A stretch of 64,000 nucleotides of DNA from NCBI GenBank assembly GCA_964619725.1, contig CAZUFC010000031.1:1414-65413 (forward strand), given 5' to 3'. Position numbers and translations under genes: made by a program. The notes beneath the pieces are model-generated. The model had not been told where the DNA came from. It worked only from the letters and a program-made list of their open reading frames with translations, and searched no databases. This document shows positions 10,262 to 36,129 of this stretch, piece after piece; position 1 is the stretch's first letter; the number at the start of each line of letters is the position of its first letter. This stretch comes from an uncultured bacterium (GTDB lineage: Bacteria; CSSED10-310; CAZUFC01).

Positions 10262-10346
10262 TAGGGGTTCGAAATCGAAACAAAATGATGGCCTATTCTG
10301 TCGAATGGTAACCGCAATAGACCTATTTTAGATCAATGCCCGAATT
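10262..10346 (-). repeat. Dispersed intergenic element, copy A (conserved core, degenerate hexamer tail)
   Basis: Reverse complement reads ATTGATCTAAAAATAG...GGTTACCATTCGACAGAATAGGCCATCATTTTGTTTCGAT, matching the copies at 10710 and 34876. Confidence 0.75.
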
Positions 10347-10608
10347 TCCCAAGTTTGTTTCGATTACGATGTAGATTGAGATAACGACTTAAATCGAAGC
10401 AAAGCGCAGACAGACCGAACAAACACCGGATGAACCGGACGGCGAAAACGCTTAACCAGAAGCCGATGCTTCTTTCTCGCCGCCGGTTATCCATGACCGT
10501 CAGCCTGTTTATCTTTTGTCGTAATCAATGCTATCAGCATTACCCGAATGATCCAATTTTGAATCCTGACCCGCGTTCGCCCAAGAGAGCTTCGGCGCCG
10601 ATCCCAAA

Positions 10609-10651
10609 AGTCCCTTCTGTCCCTTAGGTCCCTTTGTCCCTTTGTCCCTTT
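10609..10651. repeat. Short tandem GTCCCTT(N) repeat, 5 units
   Basis: gtcccttct gtcccttag gtcccttt gtcccttt gtccctt. Confidence 0.75.
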
Positions 10652-10709
10652 CGAAGCTTAAAAAATTCCGGCGCTGATGATACCCGTGTTTCGAGGTTAC
10701 ATTTTTGCC

Positions 10710-10866
10710 ATTGATCAAAGATATTTCTTTTAAGGTTGCAATTCTTCCGAATATCCCGTCATTTTGTTTCGATGTCGATTGCGATACAGACCCCGATACC
10801 GACCCCGATTGCGATACCGATACCGACCCCGATACCGATTGCGACACCGATACCGACCCCGATTAC
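10710..10866 (+). repeat. Dispersed intergenic element, copy B: core plus 16 CGA-hexamers
   Basis: ATTGATCAAAG...TAAGGTTGCAATTCTTCCGAATATCCCGTCATTTTGTTT followed by hexamers CGATAC/CGACCC/CGATTG at 10770-10865. Confidence 0.85.
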
Positions 10867-11088
10867 AAAAACGGAATGTAGCCCGAATCAAAAAAACAGC
10901 ACAGAGTAGGTCAAATAGATTTTTCTGGGTGAGGCTCAGTCGTTGAAGGGGAGAAAAATACCCATATTCCGATGCGACCTGCTTGTCGCGAAGCATGGAC
11001 ATCGGCCTGTCGGGTTTGTTCCTCTTATGAAAACCCAATGCTTATGGGTTTTATATTTCTCCCCTCTTAAGCAGACCGAAAGCGACGT

Positions 11089-12837
11089 CTATACAACAAA
11101 CTCCTCGTATTTTCCTATTAATTTTTCTGACATTACAGCCGTGATCAATATTCCTTCTTCGTCAAATTTGCGTTCTATTATGTTCGCATTTCGATGGATT
11201 CTTTCCATTATTCCCGCTTGTGCATAGGGAATAAAAAACTGAGTCTTCTTTTTATCGCTCATCAGTTTGTCCCTGATCCCGTCGGCCAGCTCATCCATTC
11301 CCTGTCCAGTTACGGCAGATACGAATACCGCGTTCCGAGTTTCAACCTTCATCCATTCAAGTTCTTGTTCCGTCAATCGGTCTATTTTGTTCATCACCAG
11401 AATCCTGGGAATCTCATCCGCTTCTAATCTTACCAGAGTATCGTTTATCGTTTTCAGATGTTCATCTTTGGCCGGATCGGAAGAGTCCAGGAGCATGCAG
11501 ATTAAATCAGCATCAAGCGCTTCTTCCAGCGTTGAGTGAAAAGCTTCAATCAGATGATGAGGCAGGTTTCTTATGAATCCGACCGTATCGCTGAAGAGAA
11601 CTTCAAAATCGTTGGGCAGGATGCATTTTCTGGTTCTGGTTTCCAACGTGGTAAAAAGTTGATTTGCCGTTTTAACTTTTGCCCCCGAAAGATAATTCAA
11701 TAATGTGGACTTGCCGGCATTGGTATAACCAACCAATGCAATCCTGTTCACCTCCATCGATTTCCGGCGTTTCCTTCTCACTTTTCTCTGCGCCGATATC
11801 CTGGCCAGTTTATCCTCCAGGTCCTGTTTTCTCTTGTATATAAGCCGTCGCGCCATTTCCTGTGCGGTTTCTCCCGGTCCTCGCGTTCCTATGCCCGCTC
11901 CGGGACGGTCCAAAAACTTCTGATCCTTGATCATTTGCTGCAGATGCTGGTTGATCATGGCGATTTTAACCTGTAATCTCCCCTCCTCGCTCGCAGCGTG
12001 CTGAGCAAAAATATGCAGGATCAAATCCGTCCTGTCCATGACGGGAACGCCGACGATCTGTTTAAGGTTCCTCTTCTGGTTGTATTTGATATCCTCGCTC
12101 AGGATTACGCCGTCCAGGTTTTTATCCAGGATCATATTTCGCATTTCATGCGCCTTGCCTCTGCCGATAAAGAATCCCGGATCAGGTTTACTTCTTTTTT
12201 GCTGAACCAGTTCAACCGCCTCAAATCCGGCCGTTTCGCACAACAGGACCAGTTCCTCCAGGCCTGCGCCGCTGCCTTCAAATTCGCTGGAAGTCAGATG
12301 AACGCCCGCCAGCAGCGCTCTCTGGCGTTGCTTTTTTCCTGTTTGTCTTCTCTTTTCGGGAATGAGAGCTGATTCGATTTTATCCGCCAGCGGAAAAAAT
12401 TCCCGGCTGGTAAATTCGCCGGGGTCCAGATGGACAACTTTTTCACTTTCCGCAGATAACTTTCCATCCTCAACCTCCGGCAAAACCATAACGGCTTCAG
12501 AATTCGGCATAATGCCTATAAACATATCAAGCCGGTACCGGTGCAGCATTATTCTCTCTCTCCCTCTCGGAAAATCCTGTTTTCCCGGTAAAAAACGAAC
12601 GGCCCTTACTCCTGAAAGCTTCCAGGTCTTCTTGCGGGGGAAAATGCGTTCCGGCGGACTTTCATCGCCCTTCGTCATTTCAACGACAAAACCATGCCTG
12701 TCGATATAGTAAGTAACACTTTCTCTCAGTTCTTCCACATACCCGGAAACCCTTTTCCATTCCTCCAAACTGAAAATGAATTCTTTGGATAAACGTTTCC
12801 CTTTTATCTCGTTAAGAAAATTTATCTTCTCTTGCAT
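11089..12837 (-). CDS. hflX: GTPase HflX with N-terminal extension
   Basis: GIGTRGPGE; G1 VGYTNAGKSTLLN; LFTTLE; G3 SDTVGFI; G4 NKID. Confidence 0.95.
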   Translation of the reverse strand: MQEKINFLNEIKGKRLSKEFIFSLEEWKRVSGYVEELRESVTYYIDRHGFVVEMTKGDESPPERIFPRKKTWKLSGVRAVRFLPGKQDFPRGRERIMLHRYRLDMFIGIMPNSEAVMVLPEVEDGKLSAESEKVVHLDPGEFTSREFFPLADKIESALIPEKRRQTGKKQRQRALLAGVHLTSSEFEGSGAGLEELVLLCETAGFEAVELVQQKRSKPDPGFFIGRGKAHEMRNMILDKNLDGVILSEDIKYNQKRNLKQIVGVPVMDRTDLILHIFAQHAASEEGRLQVKIAMINQHLQQMIKDQKFLDRPGAGIGTRGPGETAQEMARRLIYKRKQDLEDKLARISAQRKVRRKRRKSMEVNRIALVGYTNAGKSTLLNYLSGAKVKTANQLFTTLETRTRKCILPNDFEVLFSDTVGFIRNLPHHLIEAFHSTLEEALDADLICMLLDSSDPAKDEHLKTINDTLVRLEADEIPRILVMNKIDRLTEQELEWMKVETRNAVFVSAVTGQGMDELADGIRDKLMSDKKKTQFFIPYAQAGIMERIHRNANIIERKFDEEGILITAVMSEKLIGKYEEFVV

Positions 12838-13015
12838 AATAGACTCCCTGTTCGTTGACGTTTACTTTTCCTCTCAATATGAATTCAGCCAATTAAACTT
12901 AGTTTCTGTCTTCCAAAGATCGATCTCCAACTAAGCCCTCAGTAATTCTCTTGTCATCGTTTCATCTCCTTTTGTAAATGTCCTGCAAAAGAGAGTACAA
13001 ACCTGTATCCCCATC

Positions 13016-13046
13016 CGGCAAAACCCGCTGAAGACGGCTTTTGCCG
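13016..13046. terminator. Hairpin, possible terminator or attenuator between the FG-GAP gene and hflX
   Basis: CGGCAAAA...TTTTGCCG 8-bp stem plus inner CCG/CGG; no clear U-tract. Confidence 0.35.
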
Positions 13047-13216
13047 AAGCTGTTTAACTCATTTTTTTCACGTGTGGATTGAAATAGAGAAAATTAAATA
13101 GAGAAAGGAACAGTTCGACTCATCCGTCGGGATCAGCAGATTGATATATTGATGATGATCACTTTCGTACCTCCTGGTCGAACCTCTTTTTATTTACAAT
13201 AAATCCGTCGCTGATG

Positions 13217-14872
13217 TCAAGTCTGTTTCCGTACGGCGTTCAAACGACTGAACAATACCAGAAAGAAACCGAAGATAATGAGCATCGTCAGGCGTCCCGA
13301 TCTTCCCATGGCCGGTATGTCCGGGATACCGGTCGGAGTGGGTTCATCATTGCTGTAATAAGCGTATGCCCTTCCCTCTTCGACGCGTTCGACATTATAC
13401 CCATAGGAACCCACGATAACGTCATCTTTGTCGTCGCCGTTCACGTCTCCTGCGCTGCTGAGATGCAAACCGAAATAGCTGTGAGTTTGTTCGCCGGTGA
13501 CGATCCAGGAGGGCGTATTCTGAAGTCCAGACTCGGCGCCCGTGAAAACGTAGGCCCTGCCGTCGTTTGTAAAATTTTGATCGTGGCCGTATGCGCCGAT
13601 GATAACGTCGTCGAAGCCGTCGCCGTCAACATCGCCTGCACCGTCCACGGCAAAACCGAAATAGGCGCTCGCCTGTCCGCCGTAATTTATCGAAGGTATG
13701 GTCCCTAAACCGGAGGATGACCCGTAGTAAACCAGCGTTCTTCCTTCATGCGCATATTCCTGGTCATAGCCCCAGACTCCAAGAATGACATCGGCGTAAC
13801 CGTCGTTATTCACATCGCCGGCTCCGGCTGCAGACCACCCCATGTGCGCCAGGGCCTGTTCGCCGTCTGCGATCCAATCCGGGGATGATGCCGGACCAGT
13901 CGCCGAACCATGATAAACGTAAGCGCGTCCTTCCCAGTAGCACTGGTTTTCATAATCCGGAGCTCCCACGATGATGTCGTCATAGCCGTCATCATTAACG
14001 TCGCCGGCGCCGCTAACGCACGTTCCGTAAAACGCTTCGGCCTGATCGCTCTCTGCTGACCAGCCGCCGGTCGCGCTTATCCCGGTCGCCGAACCGTAAT
14101 AGAGAAATGCTGCGCCCTCCCATTGCTCTCCGTTCGTATAAGTCCTGGCCCCGATTATTACATCGTCGAAACCGTCATTGTTGACGTCGCCCGCTGAAGA
14201 TACGCAAATGCCGAACTGACAGTCGATATGACTGCCCGTCAGTACGCAGCCGGCAGTTCCCGTCAAGCCGCCCGCTGAACCATGGTAAATAAACGCCCCG
14301 CCTCGATTCAAATAATTGTGGCTTCCCACTAAAACATCATCATACCCGTCACCATTTACATCGCCCGCCGAAGATACGGAATAACCGTAGCGGGCACGAA
14401 ATCCCGTCCCGGTTCCCGTCCATTCTGCCGCCTCGCTTAAACCGGAAACAGAACCATGATACAAAAATGCCTTACCGTCACGCTCCTCTCCCGTCGTGTA
14501 GTCCGGCGCCCCGACTATAACTTCGGAATAACCATCCCCGTTCACGTCACCCGCGCCGGCAACCCGAAAACCATACGCACAATCATACTGGTCACCTTCC
14601 CCAATCCAGGAAGGCTCGACAGGCAATCCCTTCCCCCTGTCGCTCCAACCAGGCCCGGAAATAACGGATTCGCCTGCAAATCCGGAAATCGCTAAATCTG
14701 ATGAACGCAATAACCCTCCTATTCCATATACGAGTTCATTGCCTGAAACATCCCTACAATTTTCATCGGAACATTGAATTTCAATGATCCATGAAAATAT
14801 TGCCATGAACGTAATTCCTGCCGAAATTAGAAAACCCCGCTGCAATTTCCCTTTAAAAATTAATGAATTCAT
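13217..14872 (-). CDS. FG-GAP (integrin-alpha) repeat beta-propeller protein with IPTL-CTERM-like sorting tail
   Basis: Seven AGDVNGDG[YF]xD[VI]IVGA repeats; C-terminal IPAMGRSG + hydrophobic helix + basic tail. Start is probably 14872 (track 14902). Confidence 0.9.
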   Translation of the reverse strand: MNSLIFKGKLQRGFLISAGITFMAIFSWIIEIQCSDENCRDVSGNELVYGIGGLLRSSDLAISGFAGESVISGPGWSDRGKGLPVEPSWIGEGDQYDCAYGFRVAGAGDVNGDGYSEVIVGAPDYTTGEERDGKAFLYHGSVSGLSEAAEWTGTGTGFRARYGYSVSSAGDVNGDGYDDVLVGSHNYLNRGGAFIYHGSAGGLTGTAGCVLTGSHIDCQFGICVSSAGDVNNDGFDDVIIGARTYTNGEQWEGAAFLYYGSATGISATGGWSAESDQAEAFYGTCVSGAGDVNDDGYDDIIVGAPDYENQCYWEGRAYVYHGSATGPASSPDWIADGEQALAHMGWSAAGAGDVNNDGYADVILGVWGYDQEYAHEGRTLVYYGSSSGLGTIPSINYGGQASAYFGFAVDGAGDVDGDGFDDVIIGAYGHDQNFTNDGRAYVFTGAESGLQNTPSWIVTGEQTHSYFGLHLSSAGDVNGDDKDDVIVGSYGYNVERVEEGRAYAYYSNDEPTPTGIPDIPAMGRSGRLTMLIIFGFFLVLFSRLNAVRKQT

Positions 14873-15301
14873 TATTTTACGCTTCCTCTCCTGTAAGATC
14901 ATTTCTGTTACTCATTATAAGAAAAACCAGCGGTTGATCAAGCGGATGCTGCATTTTAAGATGCACTTCAGACAAAAGTAACGATGACGCATCTGGATGC
15001 CGTATCACATGTTGGAAACATCAATTTGCGAATGCGAATGACTCTGACATTCTCGCAGATATTTTCATTTGACGGATTCCGATTTTTATCTTTTCTTCTT
15101 TACCAATTTCTCCTGTTTTCGCCCCCTGATAATTTTGTTCTTTGTCCTGATTGCCTGGTATTGATTTTTGCAATTTATTGTAATACTTTAAGATGATGGA
15201 TTGCAGCGACGACGTTGCTGTTCCGGTTTGATGAAGTTCTGTCGCACAATCCCGCTAATTCAGAATGTTTTAGAATTATTACTCTTTTAGTTTAAGTCAG
15301 C

Positions 15302-15997
15302 ATGGAAAATCATCAAAGCAGCCTGGTCGGCAAATATAAAATGACATTGCAGGAGATTGATCTGCGTGACCCTATCGAAGCGGCCCCTGTTTCTCACAGG
15401 GTTATCGCCCGTTTAATCGACAGCGTTATTTCGGCGATATTATTTCTGGTGACTTACCTTGTCATTGAACAAGTATGGACGGGTCTGATTTTTTCCGGAT
15501 TCTATCTGTTATTGCAGGATTGCCTCATAGTGAACAAGAGCATTGGAAAAATGTTAATGGGGATAAGAATTCTTTCCGTGCGGGTGAAAAAGAGAAATAC
15601 CGCCCTGATGTCTTTCCTCCGCAATCTGCCTCTGGTCGGCATACTTTTTGTCCTGGCTGACGTATGCATATATCTCATTGAAGGAAAACTCTGTTTTTTT
15701 CATGTTTCTTATAAGCCTTTTCTGGGCGGTCATATTGCTTCCCTTTTGCTTCTCTGGCTGGAAGCGGGGTTGCTGATTTTCGGGAAGAATCCCTTTCGAC
15801 TAGGAGACATCCTCGGCGGCACGGCAGTAGTTCCGGACGACAGGGACTACAAAGAGGATGAAGAGGACGAGGAAGATCAACAGGCAGATGCGTCAGGCAG
15901 AACGATGACGAACGATTTCCTCGAATTCAGGTCGAAACCTCCCGAACGCGCGCAACGTCTGTCCTCCCTGACCCGGATTTTTCATACAAAATCGTAG
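15302..15997 (+). CDS. RDD family membrane protein
   Basis: RVIARLIDS, SIGKMLMGIRI, RLGDILGGTAVV; several transmembrane helices. Confidence 0.88.
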   Translation: MENHQSSLVGKYKMTLQEIDLRDPIEAAPVSHRVIARLIDSVISAILFLVTYLVIEQVWTGLIFSGFYLLLQDCLIVNKSIGKMLMGIRILSVRVKKRNTALMSFLRNLPLVGILFVLADVCIYLIEGKLCFFHVSYKPFLGGHIASLLLLWLEAGLLIFGKNPFRLGDILGGTAVVPDDRDYKEDEEDEEDQQADASGRTMTNDFLEFRSKPPERAQRLSSLTRIFHTKS

Positions 15998-16174
15998 TCA
16001 GAGCGTTCAGATTCCCGCAGATTCAAGCATGGCGGACTGAAGGACTGCGGAAAAACAGCAGCGCTACGTTGAGCAAGGCCGCAGGGAGCAGCGCTTGAAG
16101 GTACGGGGATATGGACGCTCGTAACAGGTTTTGTATGAGAAATGCGGGCTAATGCTGCAGAGAGCGTTTATGCC

Positions 16175-16813
16175 TTATTCTAAAACAAGGATTTCCACTC
16201 TTCTGTTTTGTCGCCTGCCTTCTGCGGTAGAATTATCTGAGATCGGTTTCGTTTCGCCGTAACTGATCACCGACATCTGTCTTAAAGCGATCTTACCCAC
16301 GTCGTTGAGATACCGTCTCACGGCCTCGGCTCTTTTTAATCCCAGTTCGTAGTTATATTCCTCATCGCCTAAAGCGTCGGTGTGGCCCTGAATTTCCAGG
16401 TATGAGTGAGGATAATCATTGATCAATTTCAAAGCGAATTCTTCAATCGCCCTGGCGCAATCGCCTGAAACTTTCCATTCGCCGATTCCGAAATGACAGA
16501 TGTCGTCCGAAAGCGCCATCTGGTAAACCAACTGACCTTTTGCGATCTTACCGGCTTCTTCAGCTCGCGCCAGCGCATCCCTGGCCGTCTCAGATAATTC
16601 ATTTACTTTAGTTTCCTGCGTATCGATCTTATCGGAATTATCGCTTATCCTCGTTTCATTGGCCTCGATGCTTGTCTCCAAATCCGCAATTCTCTGGTCT
16701 CTTTTCGACATCTCATTATTGAAATGATGCTTCGAAACGCAAGAGCTCAATGTCGTCATGACTAGCGCCGATAAACATGCAGCAATGATTCTCACAGCAA
16801 AATGATTTTTCAT
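16175..16813 (-). CDS. OmpA-family peptidoglycan-binding lipoprotein with coiled coil
   Basis: Lipobox LSSC; coiled coil; IQGHTD...N..LG.KRA, SYGETKP, NRRVEI. AGGAG RBS before ATG 16813. Confidence 0.92.
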   Translation of the reverse strand: MKNHFAVRIIAACLSALVMTTLSSCVSKHHFNNEMSKRDQRIADLETSIEANETRISDNSDKIDTQETKVNELSETARDALARAEEAGKIAKGQLVYQMALSDDICHFGIGEWKVSGDCARAIEEFALKLINDYPHSYLEIQGHTDALGDEEYNYELGLKRAEAVRRYLNDVGKIALRQMSVISYGETKPISDNSTAEGRRQNRRVEILVLE

Positions 16814-16850
16814 CCGTTCTAACTCCTTTCGTCCTTTCGATCTCAATTCG

Positions 16851-17885
16851 TTAATTCTGACTTCTGATGTTATCAGATTGAAAAGAACCCGTCAAATAAC
16901 CTTTCTGCGAACGCACTCTGTATTTTCTTTTTTTCACCCTGACTTCAATTTCCCGGTAAATTTTGTCCGTGCCCATCATAGCGGAATTGAATCCGATGAT
17001 GTATTGCGAGCCCAGTTCTTTAAGAATAACATCACACGCCCTTTTCATTTCATGCGGTTCGCCGACCATAAAACATTTGCCCCCGGTAGCCGAGGCTATT
17101 TCTTTAAGCATCTCCCGGTTGATCAGATCGGGTTGATTGGGCGGAAGTTCCTCGCCGTAAATAGGATCGATTCCGATTGAATAAACCGGTATATTGATCC
17201 GTCTCGTCAGCAGCAGCGCTCTTTTCAATTCCAGATTGCTGGCATTGTCGATGCCGTCAGTGAAAAGTAGCACCGCTTTATGAACATGTTCGCCTTTTCT
17301 GGCGATTTCAGGCACTGCTGCGACCGCATCAAGCAGCGCCGTTTTACCATAAGCCTTGACGCCCTTCATGGACTCCTTCAGTTTCGTCTTGCTCTTTGTA
17401 AATAGCGAACCGACTTCCAGGCCCGCATCCGCAAACAGAAGCAACGCAGCTTCATCCTCTTCCTTAAGGTAATTTATCAGGATTGTAACCGCCTCTTTGG
17501 CATTGTCGAACTTGTCCAGTATCCTCATGCTGCCGCTGACGTCCAGAAGTATGACCAGACTCGTCGGAGCCTCATACGATTTAGTCACTTCCTTGATCTC
17601 CTGCGGTATTCCATCTCTGAGGACAATGAAATCATTCTTTGAAAGATCAGTAACGAATCTGCCTTTTTTATCGGTCACCGTCACGGTCACTCTCACGAAC
17701 TCGACCGAATACGAAAGATCATAATCAATATCCTGCGGAACATCTTGATTGCCTGATTCGGCGGATTTTTTTTCATTTTCTGCAGATGCGTATCGTTCCC
17801 CGAAAATATGACCGCAGCAGAGAAGCATAAGACAGATAAGGAGCATCCTGAATAACCGGCATTTTATCGATCTATTTCGCTTCAT
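16851..17885 (-). CDS. Secreted VWA-domain protein (acidobacterial VWFA-like)
   Basis: VTVTDKKGRFVTDL, MIDAS LLDVSGSM, TALLDA, FTDGID, TGG, QYIIGF. Confidence 0.9.
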   Translation of the reverse strand: MKRNRSIKCRLFRMLLICLMLLCCGHIFGERYASAENEKKSAESGNQDVPQDIDYDLSYSVEFVRVTVTVTDKKGRFVTDLSKNDFIVLRDGIPQEIKEVTKSYEAPTSLVILLDVSGSMRILDKFDNAKEAVTILINYLKEEDEAALLLFADAGLEVGSLFTKSKTKLKESMKGVKAYGKTALLDAVAAVPEIARKGEHVHKAVLLFTDGIDNASNLELKRALLLTRRINIPVYSIGIDPIYGEELPPNQPDLINREMLKEIASATGGKCFMVGEPHEMKRACDVILKELGSQYIIGFNSAMMGTDKIYREIEVRVKKRKYRVRSQKGYLTGSFQSDNIRSQN

Positions 17886-17886
17886 G

Positions 17887-24811: not shown

Positions 24812-24962
24812 TCATATTATTTTTTTTGAATTACTTCGTAATAAATTTGATTGTAAGTTGTATATCTGTTAATTGATAAGCGAGTAATCGCGGACCGACT
24901 TCTGTCTTGCGTTTATTTCTTCACAGTTTTAAAACCGGAATTTCAAAGGAGGAAAAAGTTAA

Positions 24963-27900: not shown

Positions 27901-30107
27901 ACGGAACTAACTGGGACGAATATTTCCATAACGAAGGGACCATTTCGGACGGAGACTGGGTTGAATGCACCTATGACATTTCCGCTTCTGCAGACGGACA
28001 ATCGACGGTTTACATTCGCTGGAGCATTGGTCCGACAGATTCAGGCTGGACCTATTGCGGATGGAACATCGATGATGTTGAGGTCTCATATCTGGCGCCT
28101 TGCAACGTCCCGATCCTGACCCACGACAGCCATACGATCAATGATCAAGCCGGCAACGCCAACGGCGAACCCAATCCCGGCGAATGCATCGTCTCCGAAA
28201 TTACCCTTTATAATAATTCCGGCATAGACGCGACGAACATCTCCGCGACCGTTTCGGAAACCAGCGAATACGTGAGCGTTACCAACCCGGATATCACTTT
28301 TCCCGATATATCCGCCCACGAATACGGCTCATCCATTGGTCCCCATCTGGCCTGGGATATCGACTCATCAGCGCCCGACGGCGCCATCGTACAGTTCTCC
28401 ATTTCCTGGACAAGCGATGAGGGGTCCGGTAATACGGCCTTCTCAGCGACCATCATGAAACCGATACTCAATTACACGAACCACACCATCGACGATTGCA
28501 CGGGCGATAACGACGGCATCGCCGATCCGGGAGAAAGCATCGTATTGCCTGTGCTCCTGACTAATTCTGGTCACGGAATCGCCATGAACGTGGCCGGGAC
28601 TCTTAGCACGAGCTCCGAACATATCGTCATGGTCGACGATGCCGGCGCCTGGAACGACATTCCCGGTGAAGAATCAGGATGGAGCATCGATGATTTCGGT
28701 TTCGAAGTAAGTCCGGATGCGCCATTGGGAGAAATGGTTGAAGCGACTTTACAGGTTTATGGCGACGGATTCCTTAACACTTTTAATTTCACATTCGGAA
28801 TAGGAGCTCTGCCGGTTTTGGTGATAGACGATGACTCTGGCGATCACGCCGCCGTTTTTACCGACGTTCTGGCGAACAACGGTTATCTCGTGACGGAAGA
28901 GACGCCCGCCGGGACTGACCCTGGCGAATGGCCCGCTTATACTTTCATCGTGTGGAGTTCCGGAGACAGCAGCGAACCCGTGTCTCAATCCGCGTGGTGC
29001 GATAATCTGGAATCATACGTTGCCGACGGCGGTAAATTGCTGATCGAAGGCGGCGAGATAGCCTATGATTTCTATTGGAGCGACCCCGATTTTCTGGAGA
29101 ACGTATGCCATGTATCAGACTGGAACGGAGACAGTTCCGGCGATCTCGAACTGGCCGCTGCAGATCATCCGATCGCATTCTCTCCCTATGAACTTCCTTC
29201 CACAATTCAACACGCTTACTCGAGCTATTATGATGAAGACGCCTGTGATGCCGCTTCAGATGCTGAAATCGTCTTCGGATGGTCTTCGGCAAGCGGCGGT
29301 GGTCTTATAGTCTACGATGACGATACTGATCCGGGTAACGGAGGACAAATTGCTTTCTACTCCTATTCCATAGGAAACGTTGAAATTGATCTGCAGGACA
29401 AGATGATCGTCAATACTGCAGCCTGGCTGGCAGGCGGCGGCGGCGCCCTTCCCACTCCCACTCCTTCCTTCACACATGGTCCTCCTACATACACGCCTAG
29501 TTATACTCCGACCTACTCACCCACTTCCGTGCCTCCCACAAATACTCCCACTTTCACGCCCACCTCTTCTCCCACTGATATCCCGCCGACTTACACGCCG
29601 ACTGAAACGCCCACCGAAGTCCCGCCTACCTGGACGCCGACATCCACGCCGACCGGCATCCCTACCGATATCCCGACTCAAATACCCACTTACATCGTGA
29701 CGGAAACGCCTACAGCAGTCCTGACAGGCACTCCTTCTTTCATTCCCTCGCCCACACCCAACAGCATCAATATCCAGGTAATTCTTAACCTGAATACCTT
29801 CAGGCCCCAGGACGACTTCATCCTGGAATGCCGTATCGTCAATCCCGGTCCATTCCTGGAGCTCAACGAATTCATTATTCTGGAAGTCTACGGCAGTTAC
29901 TGGTTCTATGACGACTGGACACAGAATTTCGACTACGTTCCGATCGAAATCCCCGCTTACTCAGATGAAACTGAATCCATCCTTCAGTTCGTCTGGCCCG
30001 AAGGAGCAGGAACAGCCGACGGCCTGAAATTCTATGCAGCCCTGCTGGATAACGCTTTCAACCTGGTCACCGACATCGACGTCATAACCTGGGGGTTCGA
30101 AGAATAA
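24963..30107 (+). CDS. Gingipain-like peptidase C25, tandem paralogue with extra domains
   Basis: Same propeptide and catalytic motifs (YMGHG, DIACQNG, LFGDPS); extra NGEPNPGE / DGIADPGE domains and a VLVIDDD domain; PT linker; conserved C-terminal domain. Confidence 0.92.
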   Translation: MRLLQGFVIILCVGSLFLPASADAGRWISLTDGAEPGSPPTVTVISSDESETVLSVEATGFWVDDVEMNGEIFQKISFPDEGYMRNLGEPELPVIGRMVVVPDLKGISMDTAVSGETVLEGYRINPAQKKYRSSIPVEFKFNREVYSSSKPYPSQAASKGRPSIMRDYRFVRVEFHPVRYIGSEEKLIVNNEITVTLRYEGPAQINPHYQEAGESISPTFAVLYKEYFINYNYLPEREKDAAEPLLIICYDEFATEMDEIVQWKTRRGLPVTLTLLSDIGTSADDIQDYLQEAYDTWSPKPVYVWLIGDGGEIPTNYGIGGCASDYMYTTLEGSDIDPDVFIGRLSAQTGTEVANQTTKFITHESTPQTGEEAAMYLNATGVSSSDGYPVNDDTRLDRIKDSWIDYGIDSVDRLYISNGQATPANIIDVLDEGRFWITYMGHGDRTGWTSTNPKFSNSHIDQLNNEARSCFVVDIACQNGAFVSGSDCFGEHWLKVGTAAEPKGAVGCYSSSTNTAWDESGELGEGITYAYTEEDMTTYGAAAMGAMLYLEEQMGSGSNVEEVFQQFVLFGDPSIHVYAGELIDPVVTHDPFIPLGSVDFQVTVTDGSNPIEGAVVSAWLPGEFYEVELTDASGVAVLSLESSIYGDAFLTVTGNNIRPHEEIVPVMIPSCGIVTFNQAKYHCSAELELRVWDTDLNTDPGVVDTAEADISSDSEPAPEIINLTETGADTNEFLGTIMLSETESGPGYLLVSHEDVIIAHYYDEDCEGEPVDVYETAEADCEGPTISGVSFFNVTDTQAIITWTTDEASDSAVYYGFDTPPTESVALSESVTEHVVLLEGLDNCSKYYFYVTSTDGSGNTAIDDNSGEYFYFNTLGHFVLLEEMMDADPGWTVSGGDWEFGQPTGQGGSYGDPDPTSGYTGDNVYGYNLNGDYTNSMPAYHLTTPPLDCSMASGTTLTFYRWLGVEQPTYDHAVLSVSNDGTNWDEYFHNEGTISDGDWVECTYDISASADGQSTVYIRWSIGPTDSGWTYCGWNIDDVEVSYLAPCNVPILTHDSHTINDQAGNANGEPNPGECIVSEITLYNNSGIDATNISATVSETSEYVSVTNPDITFPDISAHEYGSSIGPHLAWDIDSSAPDGAIVQFSISWTSDEGSGNTAFSATIMKPILNYTNHTIDDCTGDNDGIADPGESIVLPVLLTNSGHGIAMNVAGTLSTSSEHIVMVDDAGAWNDIPGEESGWSIDDFGFEVSPDAPLGEMVEATLQVYGDGFLNTFNFTFGIGALPVLVIDDDSGDHAAVFTDVLANNGYLVTEETPAGTDPGEWPAYTFIVWSSGDSSEPVSQSAWCDNLESYVADGGKLLIEGGEIAYDFYWSDPDFLENVCHVSDWNGDSSGDLELAAADHPIAFSPYELPSTIQHAYSSYYDEDACDAASDAEIVFGWSSASGGGLIVYDDDTDPGNGGQIAFYSYSIGNVEIDLQDKMIVNTAAWLAGGGGALPTPTPSFTHGPPTYTPSYTPTYSPTSVPPTNTPTFTPTSSPTDIPPTYTPTETPTEVPPTWTPTSTPTGIPTDIPTQIPTYIVTETPTAVLTGTPSFIPSPTPNSINIQVILNLNTFRPQDDFILECRIVNPGPFLELNEFIILEVYGSYWFYDDWTQNFDYVPIEIPAYSDETESILQFVWPEGAGTADGLKFYAALLDNAFNLVTDIDVITWGFEE

Positions 30108-30430
30108 GCATCTCGAATGGCCGGCCCAAGCCGGCAGAGCCGAAAACCTGGACTTCAACGGAGCCGCATTTCATCACGAAACATTCAACCTTATCGGACA
30201 CATCCGCGATATGATATCTGACTATTACACACACGTGACACAAGATTTCAATTGGGTCTGTTCTTATATTAGATTTACGATTGCGTTGAATATACCGACT
30301 CCGATTCCCGACTGAGACTGTGTGGGATCAAAAATAATGGACTGCCTGAATCAGACTTGCAAATAACGCGCACAGGCAAAGTCCCGGAATATAGCCGAAA
30401 ACGCCTAAAAACCCTCGACGTAATTAAGGC

Positions 30431-30469
30431 AAAGTCCCCCCGCTTGCGGGGGGATATAGGGGGGGCTTT
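30431..30469. repeat. C-tract/G-tract palindromic REP-like element
   Basis: TCCCCCCGC-TT-GCGGGGGGA followed by TATAGGGGGGG. Confidence 0.6.
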
Positions 30470-30861
30470 CAATGAAGTCACAGTTTTATATATTTTTGTT
30501 CTGATGAACAAGTTTTATAACTCCTTGTATTTGAAGTGTAAAATGAAAATCATTCGTCTATTATGTTAAGCGTGTGTAAAAGTGAGATAAGATGGGGCTA
30601 TTTTTGACAGCAATAAACGGGGGCTGAAAAAACAGAGGATACATTTTTTTTAAACTACTGAGTGATATTGCGGATGAAACATCCTGTATGAATCAGCAGC
30701 TAATCGGGAGCAGGATCGATTGAATTTTTTTTCGATCGCCGTAGCATTGCGAATGAAATATCTTGTCTGATGCGACTGTTAATCGGGGTCGGTATCAGGA
30801 TCGAGTTATCAGAGGTTTGCAGAACCGCATAAGCGTGATCGATATCATTACGCGTCCTGGA

Positions 30862-30884
30862 AAGCGGCAGGATGCCGCTTCTAC
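30862..30884 (-). repeat. GTAG-type REP sequence
   Basis: Minus strand GTAG + AAGCGGCA-TCC-TGCCGCTT palindrome. Confidence 0.65.
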
Positions 30885-30982
30885 ATTCTTTCGTTCTCTT
30901 AAGCTTCTTTCCGATAATGTTTTTTTTTCGTTTTTATAAAAAGTATTCCGCAGAAACCGCCATCCGCCATCCCCCATCCGGC

Positions 30983-32935
30983 TCAGTTCACGTAACCCAA
31001 AGCCTCCAATTGCTTGTTTATCTGAGGCGTTAGAATCCCTTCTTCCACTTTACGATTTGCTGCTGTTCGATAAACTTTTTTCTGCCACTCCCTTAGCTTA
31101 CGGTCCAGTTTTTCTGCCGCTGATTTTTCTCTGTAAATCAGATTGACTTTTTCTTCCGGGTCTTTGGCCAGATCGTACAATTCGCGTTTTATGACCCTGC
31201 AGCGGTATTTATTAATGAAATCGTCCGAAGTCCAGAAAGTTGCCAGGTTTTCAACGGCGGCATCGAAGAGAATCCATCTTTCGTCAACGTCATGAACCAG
31301 TTTATACTGACTGTTGGTTACGGAATGCGTCTGGTATCCGTTCCGGTATGAACCTATGCTGTAATGACAGGAGCGCATTTCATATTCCCCGTTCCCGCTG
31401 AGAAAAGGTGCGAAGCTTTGCCCCTGTAATTCCGAGCTCTGCTTTATATTTAAAATGTCGCATATCGTCGGCACAGCATCGACTAAACTTACCGGTCTGT
31501 CGATTCTTTGTTCTCCGGGCGCTTCCGGATGTACCCAAATAAGAGGAACTCTGACCGTCGGTTCATAACAGTGATCACCGTGAGCGAAATAATATTCATG
31601 TTCTCCCATACTTTCGCCATGGTCTGAGGTAAAAACGACGACAGAATTAACCCATAAGCGATGCTCGTTCAGGGCTGTGAACAAATCGCCCAAACTGTCG
31701 TCGACGTGTTTTATTTCGGCATCGTATTGCGCAACATAATAGTCGATATCCTGCGAATCGTCAATCAGAGCGGTTTTGATTATGCTGCCCTGGGGGTCTG
31801 AGCCTATGGGAATTTTTCTTGAACCGTGAATGTCTGAATAAGGATCGCTTGTGTAGAGGCTCTTGTATTCCGGGGGCACGATATAGGGCGTGTGAGGGTC
31901 CATGTAGTGAATCCAGAGAAAAAACCTTCTATCCTTTATTTTTTTCAATAACTTAAACACTTCCCTGTTGACCAGGCGGGACTCTTCAACCTCATCTTCC
32001 GGTATTCTGTTCCCCGCCATTTTAAAATAATCGAAACCCTGGTGAAAATTGAAATTCGGTCCTATTACCGTATTCGCAACTACAGCAGCCGTGTAGTAAC
32101 CTTCCGTCGACAGTTTTTCCGCCAGCGTTTCGTTGAAATGCTGCAAACGGTCGCCGTTATTGAAGACCTGATGACCGGGGGGATACTTTCCCGTCAGCAG
32201 CGTCGCAACGCTCGGCGAAGTATTGCTTCTCTGCGCAATGCATCTCTCGAATAATATTCCCCTTTCCGCCAGACGCTGCATATTGGGAGAGGTCTCTCTG
32301 ACATACCCGTACGGGACGGTATGGTCTGCCCTCAGGGTATCGACGGTAATCAGTATCATATTATAATCATGGTTTTTAAACGTATTTTCAGTCTCCTGAA
32401 TCGTAGAAGAAACAAGTGCGTCGGGCCTGGCTGCAGACGCAGCGTTCAAGCGCACGGCATATAAAGCCGGTCCTGAAAAAGCGACGACTGAGAACAATGG
32501 TATTGCATAGCGGGAATTAACTATCCGGGTTCGGGATAAAAAATAAGCCGCTGCCGTAAATATGACGCTCAAAAACACTGCGCCGGCGGCCGTTATCTTT
32601 ACCGACAAAGCCGGTTCCTCCGTCCACGAACATAATAATGAAACCTGATAAAAACGGAAGAACAGTATGATAAACCAGCCTGTACCTATTCCTGCAGACA
32701 GCGCCGTTCTGGATTCCTTCCATATTGATGCCGCAACGGTTCCGGCAATGCCCGGCAATAAAACATATACAATGCCGCAAACCGCAGCATAGAACAAAAG
32801 AAACCGCCCCTGGTCCGGAAACGGCAGATCATTGTAAAACATACCGACGACAGCGGCCTCAACCATACTTGCCGAAAAACCCATAGCGACTGCAATATTA
32901 AACGTATATGCCGGCCGGTTTTTCCAGTTCTTCAT
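30983..32935 (-). CDS. Membrane-anchored sulfatase-like (alkaline phosphatase superfamily) hydrolase/transferase
   Basis: About 5 N-terminal TM helices; LITVDTLRADH, NTSPSVATLLTG, HYMDPHTPY, TSDHGE, ELYDL, LEALGY. Start is probably 32935 (track 33076). Confidence 0.88.
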   Translation of the reverse strand: MKNWKNRPAYTFNIAVAMGFSASMVEAAVVGMFYNDLPFPDQGRFLLFYAAVCGIVYVLLPGIAGTVAASIWKESRTALSAGIGTGWFIILFFRFYQVSLLCSWTEEPALSVKITAAGAVFLSVIFTAAAYFLSRTRIVNSRYAIPLFSVVAFSGPALYAVRLNAASAARPDALVSSTIQETENTFKNHDYNMILITVDTLRADHTVPYGYVRETSPNMQRLAERGILFERCIAQRSNTSPSVATLLTGKYPPGHQVFNNGDRLQHFNETLAEKLSTEGYYTAAVVANTVIGPNFNFHQGFDYFKMAGNRIPEDEVEESRLVNREVFKLLKKIKDRRFFLWIHYMDPHTPYIVPPEYKSLYTSDPYSDIHGSRKIPIGSDPQGSIIKTALIDDSQDIDYYVAQYDAEIKHVDDSLGDLFTALNEHRLWVNSVVVFTSDHGESMGEHEYYFAHGDHCYEPTVRVPLIWVHPEAPGEQRIDRPVSLVDAVPTICDILNIKQSSELQGQSFAPFLSGNGEYEMRSCHYSIGSYRNGYQTHSVTNSQYKLVHDVDERWILFDAAVENLATFWTSDDFINKYRCRVIKRELYDLAKDPEEKVNLIYREKSAAEKLDRKLREWQKKVYRTAANRKVEEGILTPQINKQLEALGYVN

Positions 32936-33258
32936 GCCTTGCGAATCTCCATTTTTAGCGTAAAAATGAGCCATACGACTTCGTGAGAACAGAAAGCGCA
33001 ATGGTCTCCGATGTTTTTTCGGATTCATCAATGCCTCCCAAAGCGATAAAAATATGTAATTTTCATGAAAAAACAAGAACCCCTGGTTCCTTGAACCGAC
33101 AGACGTTCAAGGCCTGAATCAATGATAAAAAAGCATGCCGGTAATGTCAATCCTGAAATAATACTCGCTTTTTTCCCGTTTTTATTTTAATATCAGGCGC
33201 TGTTCCGGGCATTGCGCCTGTTTACCCGGAAATCCCGTGAATTAACCTTACAGGAGGT

Positions 33259-34755
33259 ATGATGAAGAGAAGATGCAGCGGCATATTGCAGCACATATCC
33301 TCGCTCCCGTCGCCCTTCGGAATCGGCGATTTAGGACGTGGAGCTTATCGTTTTGCGGATTTTTTGTATGAAACGAACCAGAGCGTCTGGCAGGTCCTGC
33401 CGCTGACGCCGACGGAGGGCTTTTATCATCACAGCCCTTACCACAGCACCTCTTCTCTGGCTTGCAATACTCTTTTCATCAGTCCGGAGTTATTGTCACA
33501 GGAGGGATTGCTTTCGCAGTCCGACCTGGAAACGGCGGGCGAAGATCATCCGGAAAAGACGAACTATGCCGGAGTCGTTGATGTGAAAACGAGGATGTTT
33601 GACCGCGCTTATCACGAATTCAAAAAGATATCCGATGCCCGGTTTGAAGCGTTCAACGAAGACAATGCGGAATGGTTGGACGATTACGCCTTATTCTGTT
33701 CATTGAAGAAGCATTTCGGAGGCAAAGCCTGGTTTGATTGGCCCGGTGATATCCGCAACAGGGATCAAGCCGCTTTGAACTCATACCGGAAGAAACTTTC
33801 AGACGAGATCGGCAGAGAAAAATTCCTTCAGTATATGTTCTGGAAACAGTGGAAAAATTTAAAAACCTATTGCAACGAAAAAGGCATTCATATAATCGGA
33901 GATTTACCGATCTACGTGGACCATGACAGCGTAGACGTATGGACAGAACCTCAATTTTTCAAATTGGATGAAAATAAACATCCTTATGTTGTATCAGGAG
34001 TGCCCCCGGATTATTTCAGCTCCACCGGACAACTCTGGGGCAATCCCGTATATGATTGGGAGAGCCTCAGGAAGGACGATTACGGATGGTGGGTGAAACG
34101 CATGAAGCGCAATCTGGCTCTCTGCGACTTTGTTCGGATCGATCATTTTCGCGGTCTCGTCGCCTACTGGGAAGTTCCCGCAGGCGAACAGACCGCTGTT
34201 AACGGTAAATGGATCAAAGCGCCGGTTTACGATTTTTTCAACCGCCTGATGAAGGTCTTTCCCAATATGCCGGTTATTGCAGAGGACCTGGGCACCATAA
34301 CGCCCGACGTGAAACTCGTCATGAGACATTTTGAGCTGCCCGGCATGAAAGTCCTTCTCTTCGCATTCGGCGCGGATGATCCTCATCACCCCTATCTGCC
34401 CCACAACTATAAAGAAAACTTCGTCGTTTATACCGGCACTCACGACAACAATACCATTAAAGGTTGGTATGACAACGAAGCAGGCGATCAGGAAAAAAAG
34501 CGCCTGCTTGATTACATCGGATGTCATTTCGATCGGAAACAGCTTCACTGGGAACTAATACGCCTGGCCATGCGTTCAGTAGCGCACACTGCCGTCTTTC
34601 CCCTGCAGGATGTTCTCGGCCTTGGTCAGGAATGCAGAATGAACAAGCCCGGCACCGCGGACGATAACTGGATATGGCGCATGAAAAAGGATGCCGTCAC
34701 CCCCGAAGCAAAAGAACGTCTCAGGGAAATGACCTGGAAATATGGTCGTGCCTGA
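33259..34755 (+). CDS. malQ: 4-alpha-glucanotransferase (amylomaltase, GH77)
   Basis: SGILQHISSLPS, WQVLPL, GVPPDYFSSTGQLWGNP, RIDHFRG, IAEDLG, YTGTHDNNT. Confidence 0.97.
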   Translation: MMKRRCSGILQHISSLPSPFGIGDLGRGAYRFADFLYETNQSVWQVLPLTPTEGFYHHSPYHSTSSLACNTLFISPELLSQEGLLSQSDLETAGEDHPEKTNYAGVVDVKTRMFDRAYHEFKKISDARFEAFNEDNAEWLDDYALFCSLKKHFGGKAWFDWPGDIRNRDQAALNSYRKKLSDEIGREKFLQYMFWKQWKNLKTYCNEKGIHIIGDLPIYVDHDSVDVWTEPQFFKLDENKHPYVVSGVPPDYFSSTGQLWGNPVYDWESLRKDDYGWWVKRMKRNLALCDFVRIDHFRGLVAYWEVPAGEQTAVNGKWIKAPVYDFFNRLMKVFPNMPVIAEDLGTITPDVKLVMRHFELPGMKVLLFAFGADDPHHPYLPHNYKENFVVYTGTHDNNTIKGWYDNEAGDQEKKRLLDYIGCHFDRKQLHWELIRLAMRSVAHTAVFPLQDVLGLGQECRMNKPGTADDNWIWRMKKDAVTPEAKERLREMTWKYGRA

Positions 34756-34875
34756 GGCATCATTCCTTAAGGGTTAAACACATCAGTCTCCATCAAAGGA
34801 TACCGTGCCGGCATTCAGTCGCTGCTTTTTCTATACCGAATCTCCGATTGCCACGCCGATAATGAAAATTTCGGT

Positions 34876-35245
34876 ATTGATCAAAAAATAGTGGTTTAAG
34901 GTTACAATTCGAAAGAATACCTCATCATTTTGTTTCGATCCCGATTGCGATTGCGATACCGACCCCGATTACTGATGAGAGTATTTGACGAGTTCAAGCC
35001 TGTATTGAATTTATGAATTATTTATCCTTGCCCTTTTAATTCATTTATCCGCAATTCTAAATCGGTATCGGGGTCGGTATCGGTATCGGGGTCGGTATCG
35101 GTATCGGGGTCGAAAAATTATAAACGTTGTATTTGATTACCACCCCGGCAGATTGCTTCACCTTCAGCTATCAACAGCCTGTTTTTCGCCGAAATTTATT
35201 GATTTTTGTCTCGATTGCGATTGCGACCCCGACCCCGATTACTGA
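34876..35245. repeat. Dispersed intergenic element copy C (core plus 6 hexamers), followed by an inverted 9-hexamer array (35059-35112) and a 5-hexamer array (35212-35241)
   Basis: ATTGATCAAAAAATAG...TAAGGTTACAATTCGAAAGAATACCTCATCATTTTGTTTCGAT; arrays in +,-,+ orientation. Confidence 0.85.
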
Positions 35246-35383
35246 AACAAACTGTAAAAAGTTATGGAAGAGGTGTAACCCCGGTTCGATCTGTCCCCAA
35301 ATTTCTATACACATATTGAAAAATAATGCCTGAAATTTACATATTGGACGGGAACCGTCAGAAGACTACTCGATGGTAAAGTC

Positions 35384-36112: not shown

Positions 36113-36129
36113 CAGATGTTCCCCCTGCA

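Follow-up and report, generated by a model that had tools for sequence, protein, structure and literature searches.

The 64-kb stretch of DNA analysed here (the window) contains three copies of a short repeat, distributed over two intergenic regions. Both regions lie between convergent long ORFs, as the flanking ORF pairs confirm (Table 1). All three copies are located where a preliminary description of the window had placed them. The ATTC-N4-GAAT motif with the loops GACA, TTCC, and GAAA, and the run of CGA hexamers following each copy, are likewise present as claimed there. The copies share the 15-mer TCATTTTGTTTCGAT, which occurs exactly three times in the window and gains no additional match when up to two mismatches are allowed. 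The 15-mer has on average 0.32 matches in shuffled windows, and three matches are reached in 0 of 100 shuffles. Neither region has a transposase nearby, as described before, but a matching IS1-family element is found on another contig of the genome, designated C100.

Table 1. Flanking ORFs and repeat features of the two intergenic regions in the window, and the related element on contig C100.
Feature	Position	Strand	Basis or remark
First region, left ORF, glycosyltransferase family 2	9297-10181	+	
Copy 1, MITE head only (profile positions 1-76)	10265-10340	-	nhmmer E=6.6e-15
Copy 1, 15-mer	10274-10288	-	
Copy 1, terminal repeat	10328-10340		1 mismatch
Putative older-copy fragment (head end and a few hexamers)	10341-10395	+	by eye against the family consensus; no nhmmer hit of its own
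Putative fragment like the first ~37 bp of the head (GGCGCTGATG...GGTTACA...)	10671-10706	+	by eye
Copy 2, head, ~15-unit hexamer array, and start of a degraded, internally deleted tail	10707-10879	+	nhmmer, terminal repeat
Copy 2, terminal repeat	10707-10719		
Copy 2, nhmmer hit (profile 3-96)	10709-10802		E=4.9e-20
Copy 2, 15-mer	10759-10773	+	
Copy 2, tandem-repeat rows	10782-10864		
Copy 2, weaker nhmmer hit (profile 64-113)	10830-10879		E=2.6e-4
First region, right ORF, HflX-type GTPase	11089-12837	-	
Second region, left ORF, 4-alpha-glucanotransferase	33259-34755	+	
Copy 3, left target-site duplication AAAATTTC	34865-34872	+	7/8 bases equal to right flank
Copy 3, complete 425-bp element	34873-35297	+	nhmmer head and tail, sequence
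Copy 3, head	34873-34939	+	sequence
Copy 3, nhmmer head hit	34873-34975		E=4e-24
Copy 3, 15-mer	34925-34939	+	
Copy 3, first hexamers	34940-34975	+	sequence
Copy 3, insert, 228 bp	34976-35203	+	unique in genome, self hit only
Copy 3, reverse-strand hexamer run in insert	35061-35112		
Copy 3, nhmmer tail hit	35204-35297		E=7.7e-25
Copy 3, second hexamers	from ~35212	+	sequence
Copy 3, tail	ends 35297	+	nhmmer
Copy 3, right target-site duplication CAAATTTC	35298-35305	+	sequence
Second region, right ORF, no Pfam family	35384-36130	-	
2.4-kb IS1-family element, same head and array-plus-tail around an intact 275-aa DDE transposase	C100:81-2482		

The head of copy 1 continues into a decayed hexamer run that, by reading of the sequence, extends to ~10230, and no recognisable tail follows. 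The outer end of copy 1 directly abuts a second head fragment on the opposite strand, which suggests that copy 1 inserted into an older copy. The left end of copy 2 is set by its terminal repeat, and a partial head sits directly upstream. Similar junctions of a partial head with a full element appear, by eye, in the listed flanks of other loci. Copy 3 is complete, with an insert between two runs of hexamers. In contigs derived from other copies, the head is joined to the tail with 254-282 bp skipped relative to copy 3. No RNA run is listed as containing the locus; in two DNA sequencing runs from one study, the contigs covering it stop inside the element, and the apparent joints belong to other copies.

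The full unit measures ~155 bp. Its head takes up 64 bp and its tail 58 bp, and the two are separated by a (CGAYNN)n hexamer array that varies in length; the ~75 bp first taken for the whole element correspond to the head. The modal length is 143-167 bp. The ends are inverted repeats, GGCATTGATCAAA and GGGACTGATCAAA, each followed by GGTTACA, and the two 13-mers are inverted copies that differ at two positions. They begin with GGCATTG and GGGACTG, and the end form can be written as GGnnnTGATCAAA. Terminal 13-mers with no more than one mismatch number 1110 in the genome, against 9 when the genome is reversed as a control. The same ~35-bp ends are carried by no fewer than six other non-coding families in this genome. 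By eye, no start codon is conserved across the copies, and a small peptide gene in the element was dropped on that ground. Integron attC sites, whose core motifs do not fit, and a sigma-70 promoter in the element ends, whose spacing is wrong, were also dropped by eye.

The genome, from a microbial-mat bacterium, is represented by an assembly of 9.17 Mb in 344 contigs that is 90.9% complete with 6.5% contamination. The repeat is far more abundant than the preliminary description had recognised: an nhmmer profile gives 829 hits, comprising 295 full-length copies, 492 heads, and 552 tails. The hits cover 91,550 bp, or 1.0% of the genome, and are spread over 236 of the 344 contigs. The family has about 500 copies, which are intergenic and in many cases truncated. 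Among head-tail pairs within 260 bp, 64 of 381 possess identical 8-bp flanks and 45 more differ by one base, with none in an offset-8 control. A second pairing method finds no more than one mismatch between the 8-bp flanks of 85 of 286 pairs, again with none in the control. The 8-bp target duplications are AT-rich in the middle and the insertion sites are AT-rich, about NAAATTTN. The mean identity to the consensus is 86%, the median nearest-neighbour identity of the 295 full copies is 0.88, and only 16 of them are at least 97% identical to a neighbour. Most copies are old, and they may be decaying neutrally.

The hexamer array is the variable part of the unit. The head-to-tail spacings of the 235 tail-bearing copies, out of 337, peak at 19, 25, 31, 37, 43, and 49 bp, with 27, 41, 40, 25, 12, and 13 copies, respectively, and array length changes in 6-bp steps. 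Arrays of at least four units are found in or beside a MITE hit in 408 of 452 cases, and a control gives 2 arrays. The main hexamer types are CGATAC (640), CGACCC (550), CGATCC (353), and CGATTG (352), in which the CGA is constant and the remaining three positions vary. Element families beyond this one that share its ends display perfect duplications without possessing arrays, so the arrays are unnecessary for movement.

Searches of other genomes and of metagenomes did not recover the MITE family. Among 40 other genomes, only the hexamer part was matched, in three. Within 14 genomes of the phylum, the window's own genome contains 299 end matches, compared with 0-2 in each of the others. With records of the same genome left out, a 20-base pattern recovers three stretches in genome contigs and four in metagenome contigs. 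One of the former, in a Desulfobacterales MAG, combines the 15-mer with hexamers and is free of MITE ends. The other two stretches and all four metagenomic ones are chance-like.

The C100 element contains two ORFs in addition to its transposase, a PIN-like ORF and a 137-aa ORF without a family, and its hexamer array separates the end of the element from the start of the transposase. The head is 95-98% identical over positions 1-59 to the best 13 MITE heads among the matches listed, and the similarity ends there. Three MITEs with perfect duplications (C6:33862, C248:4723, and C46:23283) align with C100 over its left 59-60 bp and then over approximately the 80-125 bp at its right end. The C100 interior and the transposase gene are both single-copy in the assembly. 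The MITE is likely the C100 element minus a 2.2-kb interior. A match of the core to an IS end had been put forward as grounds for setting the repeat aside; such a match is present in C100, but it accounts for the element, as a MITE, and is no reason to dismiss it. No inverted repeats other than the MITE ends bracket the C100 transposase. By a hand estimate from genome counts, the probability that a given gene has by chance a tail at most 200 bp and a head at most 1.4 kb away, both correctly oriented, is ~2e-4. The C100 element displays no target duplication of its own, with AATTTTCA and CATTTTTC at its flanks.

The best NCBIfam match of the 275-aa protein is the IS1 family transposase model (E=7e-14), at 52 bits against a cut-off of 100. 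The protein scores 18.3 bits against Pfam DDE_Tnp_IS1 (cut-off 24.1) and matches the IS1595 model weakly (E=1.1e-6, 28.7 bits, cut-off 75). The sole curated cut-off that it passes, narrowly, is that of DDE_Tnp_IS240 (28.2 vs 27). A search of the genome itself with PF03400, the Pfam IS1 model, returned nothing. A homologue search with the protein gave at least 8000 scored candidates, all of them relatives. The best 120 of the 8000, the self hit aside, are 56-65% identical and mostly of similar length; homologues in this range belong to PF03400, and many are named 'IS1 family transposase'. Residues D66, D138, and E202, along with the residues of an N-terminal helix-turn-helix, do not vary among 11 aligned sequences, and the C100 protein has them all. 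By motif reading, the three residues constitute a putative catalytic triad.

IS1-family elements generally have GGnnnTG ends and generate duplications of 8-9 bp. The MITE ends fit the pattern GG-NNN-TG...CAAAAA, and the MITE copies have 8-bp duplications. An IS1-family element printed in an excerpt of PMC6382973 likewise combines 8-bp duplications with the ends GGTGGTGTTTCAAAAAG..., beginning GGTGGTG. Comparable terminal repeats are absent from three of three plasmid homologues of the transposase examined (~44% identity), which gives no independent support for the use of such ends by this transposase clade. The arrangement on C100 suggests that this element is the likely master copy and its transposase the likely driver. 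An intact driver is not required to explain the present family, because most copies are old.

The element is a MITE and not a structured RNA, because it combines inverted-repeat ends, 8-bp duplications, and a high copy number with no covariation, no strand bias, and no Rfam match. Of the possibilities raised in the preliminary description, the non-autonomous mobile element is borne out by the first three of these properties, and a protein-binding site holds solely in the trivial sense that a transposase is expected to bind the ends. A family of small structured RNAs, or of RNA or DNA hairpins under selection as terminators, mRNA stabilisers, or sRNAs, would make the palindromic shape itself functional. 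The consensus does fold as RNA into one long hairpin with the array at its tip (MFE -36.3 kcal/mol), and the intergenic location of the copies would suit such a role. Convergent gaps, the setting of both window regions, are also ~1.8-fold enriched (75 of 234 classifiable full copies vs 832 of 4742 background gaps, by crude ORF-based gene calls), which genome-wide is a tendency and not a rule. However, at each of the 48 predicted pairs the bases pair as often as independence would predict, and double changes occur at chance. The ATTC/GAAT arms, initially taken as invariant, are intact in only 153 of the 295 full copies, with no compensation at the four arm pairs. Where the neighbouring genes are arranged in tandem, 58 copies share their strand and 54 do not. 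A search of the window against Rfam yields 0 hits at the gathering threshold, and two canonical copies searched at E up to 1 give only a snoRNA match (E=0.34). Given also the many truncated copies and the target duplications, which show how the copies arose, a selected RNA or hairpin is scarcely credible. Recruitment of the array, or of the whole unit, as a host-protein binding platform or a length-variable switch near genes, besides its transposon role, is very improbable. The constancy of the CGA, the few types allowed at the other positions, the hypervariable array length, and the array next to the C100 transposase could all be read as signs of function. Yet the arrays are essentially confined to this MITE family, and families with the same ends move without them. 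Neither a positional nor a strand preference towards genes is observed, no candidate binding protein was identified, and a promoter scan upstream of the C100 transposase found no promoter-like site. A bolder reading, also improbable though less so, holds that the array is more than a passenger, that the ~450 arrays are length-variable switches by hundreds of host genes, and that one IS1-type enzyme mobilises at least half a dozen unrelated cargos via the shared ~35-bp end module. If so, slippage in the C100 array could set transposase expression or end recognition.

Movement of the MITE by a different transposase, unassembled or extinct and perhaps of the IS1595, ISL3, or IS256 type, all of which likewise give 8-bp duplications, with the C100 arrangement being secondary, is unlikely but carries some weight. 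The C100 gene would then be an unrelated IS1-like gene situated between two MITE halves or inside one copy. The absence of a target duplication at C100, the single copy and sub-threshold family scores of its transposase, the plasmid homologues without such ends, and the age of most copies are all compatible with another driver. In addition, the assembly is incomplete and its contigs are broken by repeats, and 8-bp duplications and GG ends also fit IS1595/Merlin (excerpts of PMC8101967). Nevertheless, the similarity between C100 and the MITE subfamily ends exactly at the deletion junctions, no other inverted repeat surrounds the transposase, and chance flanking is improbable by the estimate above. 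Searches of the 90.9% complete genome for other transposases gave no DDE_Tnp_IS1595 match among seven scored candidates and no MULE match. ISL3, IS256, and IS66 are each represented by a single truncated or stop-containing remnant, an IS4-like transposase by one intact gene without these ends, and rve by 4 matches. The ISL3 remnant, on contig C18 and 280 bp from a MITE, was dropped since it shares no ends with it. Of 30 inverted end pairs 500-4000 bp apart that were inspected, none encloses a transposase. Two pairs more than 1 kb apart with near-identical flanks contain a 607-aa secreted-looking ORF and no transposase (C220:121-2971) and ordinary ORFs (C82:30601-36314). Clustering of 487 ORFs of at least 200 aa beside element ends gave, by eye, host proteins (PT-rich secreted proteins, a sulfatase, a radical SAM enzyme, and kinases) and no transposases. 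Mobilisation as a REP/BIME-like or TIRtron-like repeat by a Y1 (RAYT/IS200-type) tyrosine transposase is extremely improbable. The genome does contain nine Y1_Tnp matches, and the element is palindromic and intergenic. But the link to a RAYT gene suggested for inspection is not consistent: a MITE hit lies within 1 kb of only two of the nine Y1 genes; for the others it is 9.5-45 kb away on their contig, except on contig C269, which has none. The 8-bp target duplications also speak against this type of enzyme; HUH Y1 transposases are not known to make any.

The element is most probably an IS1-type MITE of ~155 bp in about 500 copies, with the C100 transposase as its likely driver. A DDE transposase supplied in trans would bind the ~35-bp terminal modules and insert the element at AT-rich sites with an 8-bp stagger between its cuts, and the 8-bp duplication would arise when the resulting gaps are repaired. 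The transposase probably originates from the 2.4-kb C100 element, the MITE being C100 with its interior deleted. The hexamer array would be a slippage-prone passenger microsatellite that changes length in steps of one unit.

As selfish DNA the MITE is ordinary, apart from the unusual six-base repeat built into it, and the known workings of such elements are unchanged by this finding. For annotation, ~1% of a 9.2-Mb genome and many contig breaks are attributable to one repeat, which gene callers and RNA-motif hunters will keep running into if it is left unmasked. For biology, the family offers a clean example of an IS1-family element that probably gave rise to a very large MITE family, of several unrelated MITE families with one end module, and of a microsatellite spread through a genome by a transposon.

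Copy numbers of prokaryotic MITEs in excerpts of PMC10969869 extend from tens up to 711, the figure for ERIC in Photorhabdus luminescens, placing the present family near the top of the printed bacterial figures. Like the Correia, ERIC, Chunjie, and QMITE elements described there, it is small and non-coding, carries terminal inverted repeats and direct target repeats, and occurs as many full and truncated intergenic copies. It differs from them in its unrelated sequence, the 8-bp AT-rich duplications, the internal hexamer microsatellite, and the at least six further families that share its ~35-bp ends in one genome. BrickBuilt of Porphyromonas gingivalis, according to excerpts of PMC4596501, is similarly composed of a leader, an internal tandem repeat, and a tail with small inverted-repeat ends, and is always intergenic and species-restricted. 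BrickBuilt contains a 23-nt minisatellite and has 19 copies, whereas the MITE has a 6-nt unit, about 500 copies, and a candidate master IS. Promoter activity has been demonstrated for BrickBuilt (PMC4596501, same excerpts).

The IS1 family, exemplified by the ISAba3-like ends of Tn6645 in the excerpt of PMC6382973, shares with C100 a ~275-aa DDE transposase with an N-terminal helix-turn-helix, and shares with the MITE 8-bp target duplications and ends of the GG-NNN-TG...CAAAAA type. C100 departs from this family in its protein scores under the curated cut-offs, its passenger ORFs, its near-end hexamer array, and the lack of its own target duplication. The IS1595 family and eukaryotic Merlin elements also have duplications of 8 bp (8-9 bp) and ends starting with GG in the excerpts of PMC8101967, but no DDE_Tnp_IS1595 domain was found in the 90.9% complete genome and the C100 protein matches the IS1595 model weakly. 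In the same excerpts, some Merlin families possess 6-bp tandem repeats near an end.

The ~75-bp element of the preliminary description is real but forms only part of a longer, far more abundant unit. Its copies at 10262-10346, 10710-10773, and 34876-34939 were confirmed by reading the sequence, as were the CGA-phased hexamers directly after each copy and the convergent long ORFs on both sides of each of the two host regions. The window contains three exact matches to the 15-mer TCATTTTGTTTCGAT and none beyond these at up to two mismatches; shuffled sequences contained a mean of 0.32 matches, and none of 100 shuffles reached three. At up to two mismatches, the 15-mer has 479 matches in the genome, most preceded by the same upstream sequence as judged by eye, and a second conserved module, the tail, lies downstream of the hexamers in 235 of 337 head-bearing copies. 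The full unit, referred to as the MITE, is sequentially composed of a 64-bp head, a (CGAYNN)n hexamer array, and a 58-bp tail. Its ends are inverted repeats (GGCATTGATCAAA / GGGACTGATCAAA), with GGTTACA a few bases inwards of each. A 155-position profile made from copies with perfect flanks gave 829 matches (295 full-length, 188 head-only, 245 tail-only, and 80 internal) in the window's genome, which has 9.17 Mb in 344 contigs, 47% G+C, 90.9% completeness, and 6.5% contamination. The matches, totalling 492 heads and 552 tails, lie on 236 of the 344 contigs and together cover 91,550 bp (1.0% of the genome).

The repeat is a transposon with the defining structural features of a MITE. Identical 8-bp flanks abut the ends in 64 of 381 head-tail pairs spaced by at most 260 bp, and another 45 pairs differ by one base; a control comparison shifted by 8 bp gave no pair. 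The duplicated octamers have an AT-rich middle, roughly NAAATTTN. Independent pairing by the 13-mer ends found flanks with at most one mismatch in 85 of 286 pairs, versus 0 in the control. The inverted-repeat ends, 8-bp duplications, and high copy number bear out the mobile-element reading put forward from the window alone.

The first host region in the window lies between genes for a family-2 glycosyltransferase and an HflX-type GTPase, and the second between a 4-alpha-glucanotransferase gene and a 248-aa ORF. Fragments of older MITE copies (10341-10395 and 10671-10706, assigned by eye) abut copies 1 and 2, and two other dispersed repeats lie between these copies as well. This intergenic gap is a graveyard of repeats. 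A repeat at 10420-10492 has 65-98-bp matches of ~77-88% identity on about 20 other contigs, and an GTCCCTTT octamer microsatellite of five units spans 10602-10651, with similar octamer runs at many genome loci. The array of copy 3 is interrupted by a 228-bp insert found nowhere else in the genome. In two microbial-mat DNA runs, contigs end at the copy 3 element, and contigs of other copies connect head and tail but lack the insert.

Coordinates of MITE copies, associated ORFs, and other repeats (C, contigs of the window's genome)
Feature	Location	Strand	Description
Copy 1	10265-10340	-	head and decayed array, without tail
Copy 2	10707-10879		head, ~15 hexamers, degraded tail
Copy 3	head at 34873, tail ends 35297		complete element; flanks AAAATTTC / CAAATTTC
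248-aa ORF	window 35384-36130	-	adjoins copy 3; without Pfam family at E up to 0.001
C100 ORF 1			275 aa; transposase, IS1 family model best match
C100 ORF 2	C100:701-1114	-	137 aa; no family
C100 ORF 3	C100:207-539	-	110 aa; PIN-like, 23.1 bits, just under cut-off
Elements with MITE ends (examples)	C18:65975-66220, C101:28541-28786, C21:70828-71089, C241:267-448, C136:8301-8696		unrelated interiors
Y1_Tnp matches	C12:95588, C35:6577, C22:70175, C22:72554, C27:20686, C5:25002, C1:26917, C198:9673, C269:3898
CGACAA/CGATCA repeat	C42:11809, C42:17746, C88:20080, C94:12695, C154:406, C195:2461, C29:5423, C109:7792

A small structured RNA had also been proposed for the element. Folded as RNA, the MITE consensus does form a single long hairpin, capped by the array (-36.3 kcal/mol). 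At all 48 of 48 pairs, however, the paired fraction among the 295 full copies equals the expectation for independent columns, and double changes occur at chance level. The ATTC/GAAT arms, described as invariant from the window copies, are all intact in just 153 of the 295 and show no compensation. No part of the head is less conserved than the four bases of the supposed loop (GACA 97, TTCC 55, TACA 26, GAAA 16). Rfam searches returned no match for the window and no credible match for two canonical copies. The structured-RNA reading is rejected on these covariation and Rfam results; a hairpin is expected of inverted ends, and there is no sign of its maintenance. By crude ORF-based gene calls, the full copies lie in 112 tandem, 75 convergent, and 47 divergent contexts, inside called ORFs (22), and at contig edges (39). 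Copies fall in convergent gaps ~1.8 times as often as the proportion of such gaps would predict, and in tandem contexts 58 copies run along the gene direction and 54 against it.

The hexamer array varies in length by whole units, the head-tail spacing rising in six-bp steps (19, 25, 31, 37, 43, 49 bp and beyond). Arrays of at least four CGAYNN units number 452 in the genome versus 2 in a reversed control, and 408 of the 452 lie in or beside a MITE match; the most frequent units are CGATAC, CGACCC, CGATCC, and CGATTG. A stricter pattern finds 275 arrays in this genome versus 0-1 in each of the phylum's 13 other genomes. Array-less families with MITE ends also show perfect duplications, and thus the array is not needed for movement. 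We read it as a slipping passenger microsatellite. Single short CGAYNN arrays occur in a few other genomes (stretches L005-L007, from genomes G002, G008, and G003), forming an inverted pair in G003 and G008. A Desulfobacterales MAG contig (L017, 398-448) carries an array after the 15-mer TCATTTTGTTTCGAT, without MITE ends. In a further repeat family, at eight or more loci, a CGACAA/CGATCA hexamer run follows its own inverted complement (GTTGTCGTTGTCGG...).

Transposase-family searches of the genome gave mostly nothing or single remnants; a weak match to DDE_Tnp_IS240 on contig C100 pointed to a 2.4-kb candidate, C100:81-2482. Its left end is a MITE head that, over positions 1-59, has 95-98% identity to the 13 best matches listed among MITE heads; beyond position 59 the similarity ends. 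At the right end, hexamers are followed by a tail that ends at 2482. The 2.2-kb interior occurs once in the assembly and contains three ORFs, all on the strand starting from the tail end. The 275-aa protein matches the NCBIfam IS1 family transposase model best (E=7e-14, 52 bits, below the cut-off of 100), and scores 28.2 bits with DDE_Tnp_IS240 and 18.3 bits with DDE_Tnp_IS1 in Pfam. Every one of the 8000 candidates scored is a relative; the best 120 of them are 56-65% identical (self aside) and mostly of similar length, and many are named IS1 family transposase. D66, D138, E202, and the helix-turn-helix residues, invariant in an 11-sequence alignment, are retained. The two passenger ORFs, one PIN-like (110 aa) and one without family (137 aa), may constitute a toxin-antitoxin pair carried by an IS.

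Three MITEs with perfect duplications (C6:33862, C248:4723, C46:23283) correspond to the left 59-60 bp of C100 plus roughly its right-hand 80-125 bp. Judged by sequence, the MITE corresponds to the C100 element with the interior removed. No other inverted repeats were found bracketing the transposase gene, which is single-copy in the assembly. IS1 elements generally have GGnnnTG ends and 8-9-bp duplications. One published IS1-family element has ends GGTGGTGTTTCAAAAAGTATGCTG and 8-bp duplications (PMC6382973), and the MITE follows this pattern. Against C100 as the master, its flanks carry no target duplication (AATTTTCA vs CATTTTTC), and no MITE-like ends surround three plasmid homologues of ~44% identity. 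C100:81-2482 is nevertheless likely the master copy of the MITE family. Nine Y1_Tnp (IS200/RAYT-type) matches, most with 209-287-aa open frames, are also present in the genome; a link to the MITE was rejected, only two of the nine lying within 1 kb of a copy.

At up to one mismatch, the genome contains 1110 matches to the 13-mer ends, versus 9 in the control. Clustering of the sequence just inside them yields one cluster of 656, the hexamer family, and more than ten smaller clusters of 8-38 ends each. Pairing by these ends includes elements alike in the ends alone, such as a 246-bp family (C18:65975, C101:28541) and single elements of 262, 182, and 396 bp. Several non-coding families are therefore served by a single end module. 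At least six other non-coding families have ~35-bp ends and perfect 8-bp duplications as in the hexamer MITE, with unrelated interiors. At C220:121-2971, a 607-aa secreted-looking ORF, perhaps a gene trapped between two MITE ends, is enclosed by a MITE head and a MITE tail whose flanks are near-identical (CTGACTTA / CAGACTTA).

Most of the MITE family is old and decaying. Full copies average 86% identity to the consensus and 79% to one another; nearest-neighbour identity has a median of 88%, and a neighbour of at least 97% identity exists for only 16 of 295. Distribution was searched by exact pattern or BLAST on samples, with the window's own records excluded. Forty other genomes gave hexamer-only matches, in three of them, and MITE end matches number 299 in the window's genome versus 0-2 in each of the phylum's 13 others. 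Among 185,579 species genomes, a 20-base pattern matched three stretches, and in JGI metagenomes four, none with MITE ends. Among the genomes and metagenomes searched, the family was not found outside the window's genome.

A text search of the literature, in which sequences are not searchable, found no description of this element. The MITE is a real feature of a kind already in print, namely bacterial MITEs with internal tandem repeats. One of these, BrickBuilt of P. gingivalis, has 19 copies and a unit of 23 nt (PMC4596501), whereas the unit here is 6 nt. The copy number is high, yet inside the range published for bacteria (Correia >120, ERIC up to 711; PMC10969869). This MITE stands apart by its sequence family, an IS1-type candidate parent that carries passenger genes, the end module common to several families, and the scale of microsatellite spread. 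A separate 36-bp tandem repeat (3.5 copies, 91% matches) occupies positions 1-125, at the window's very start.
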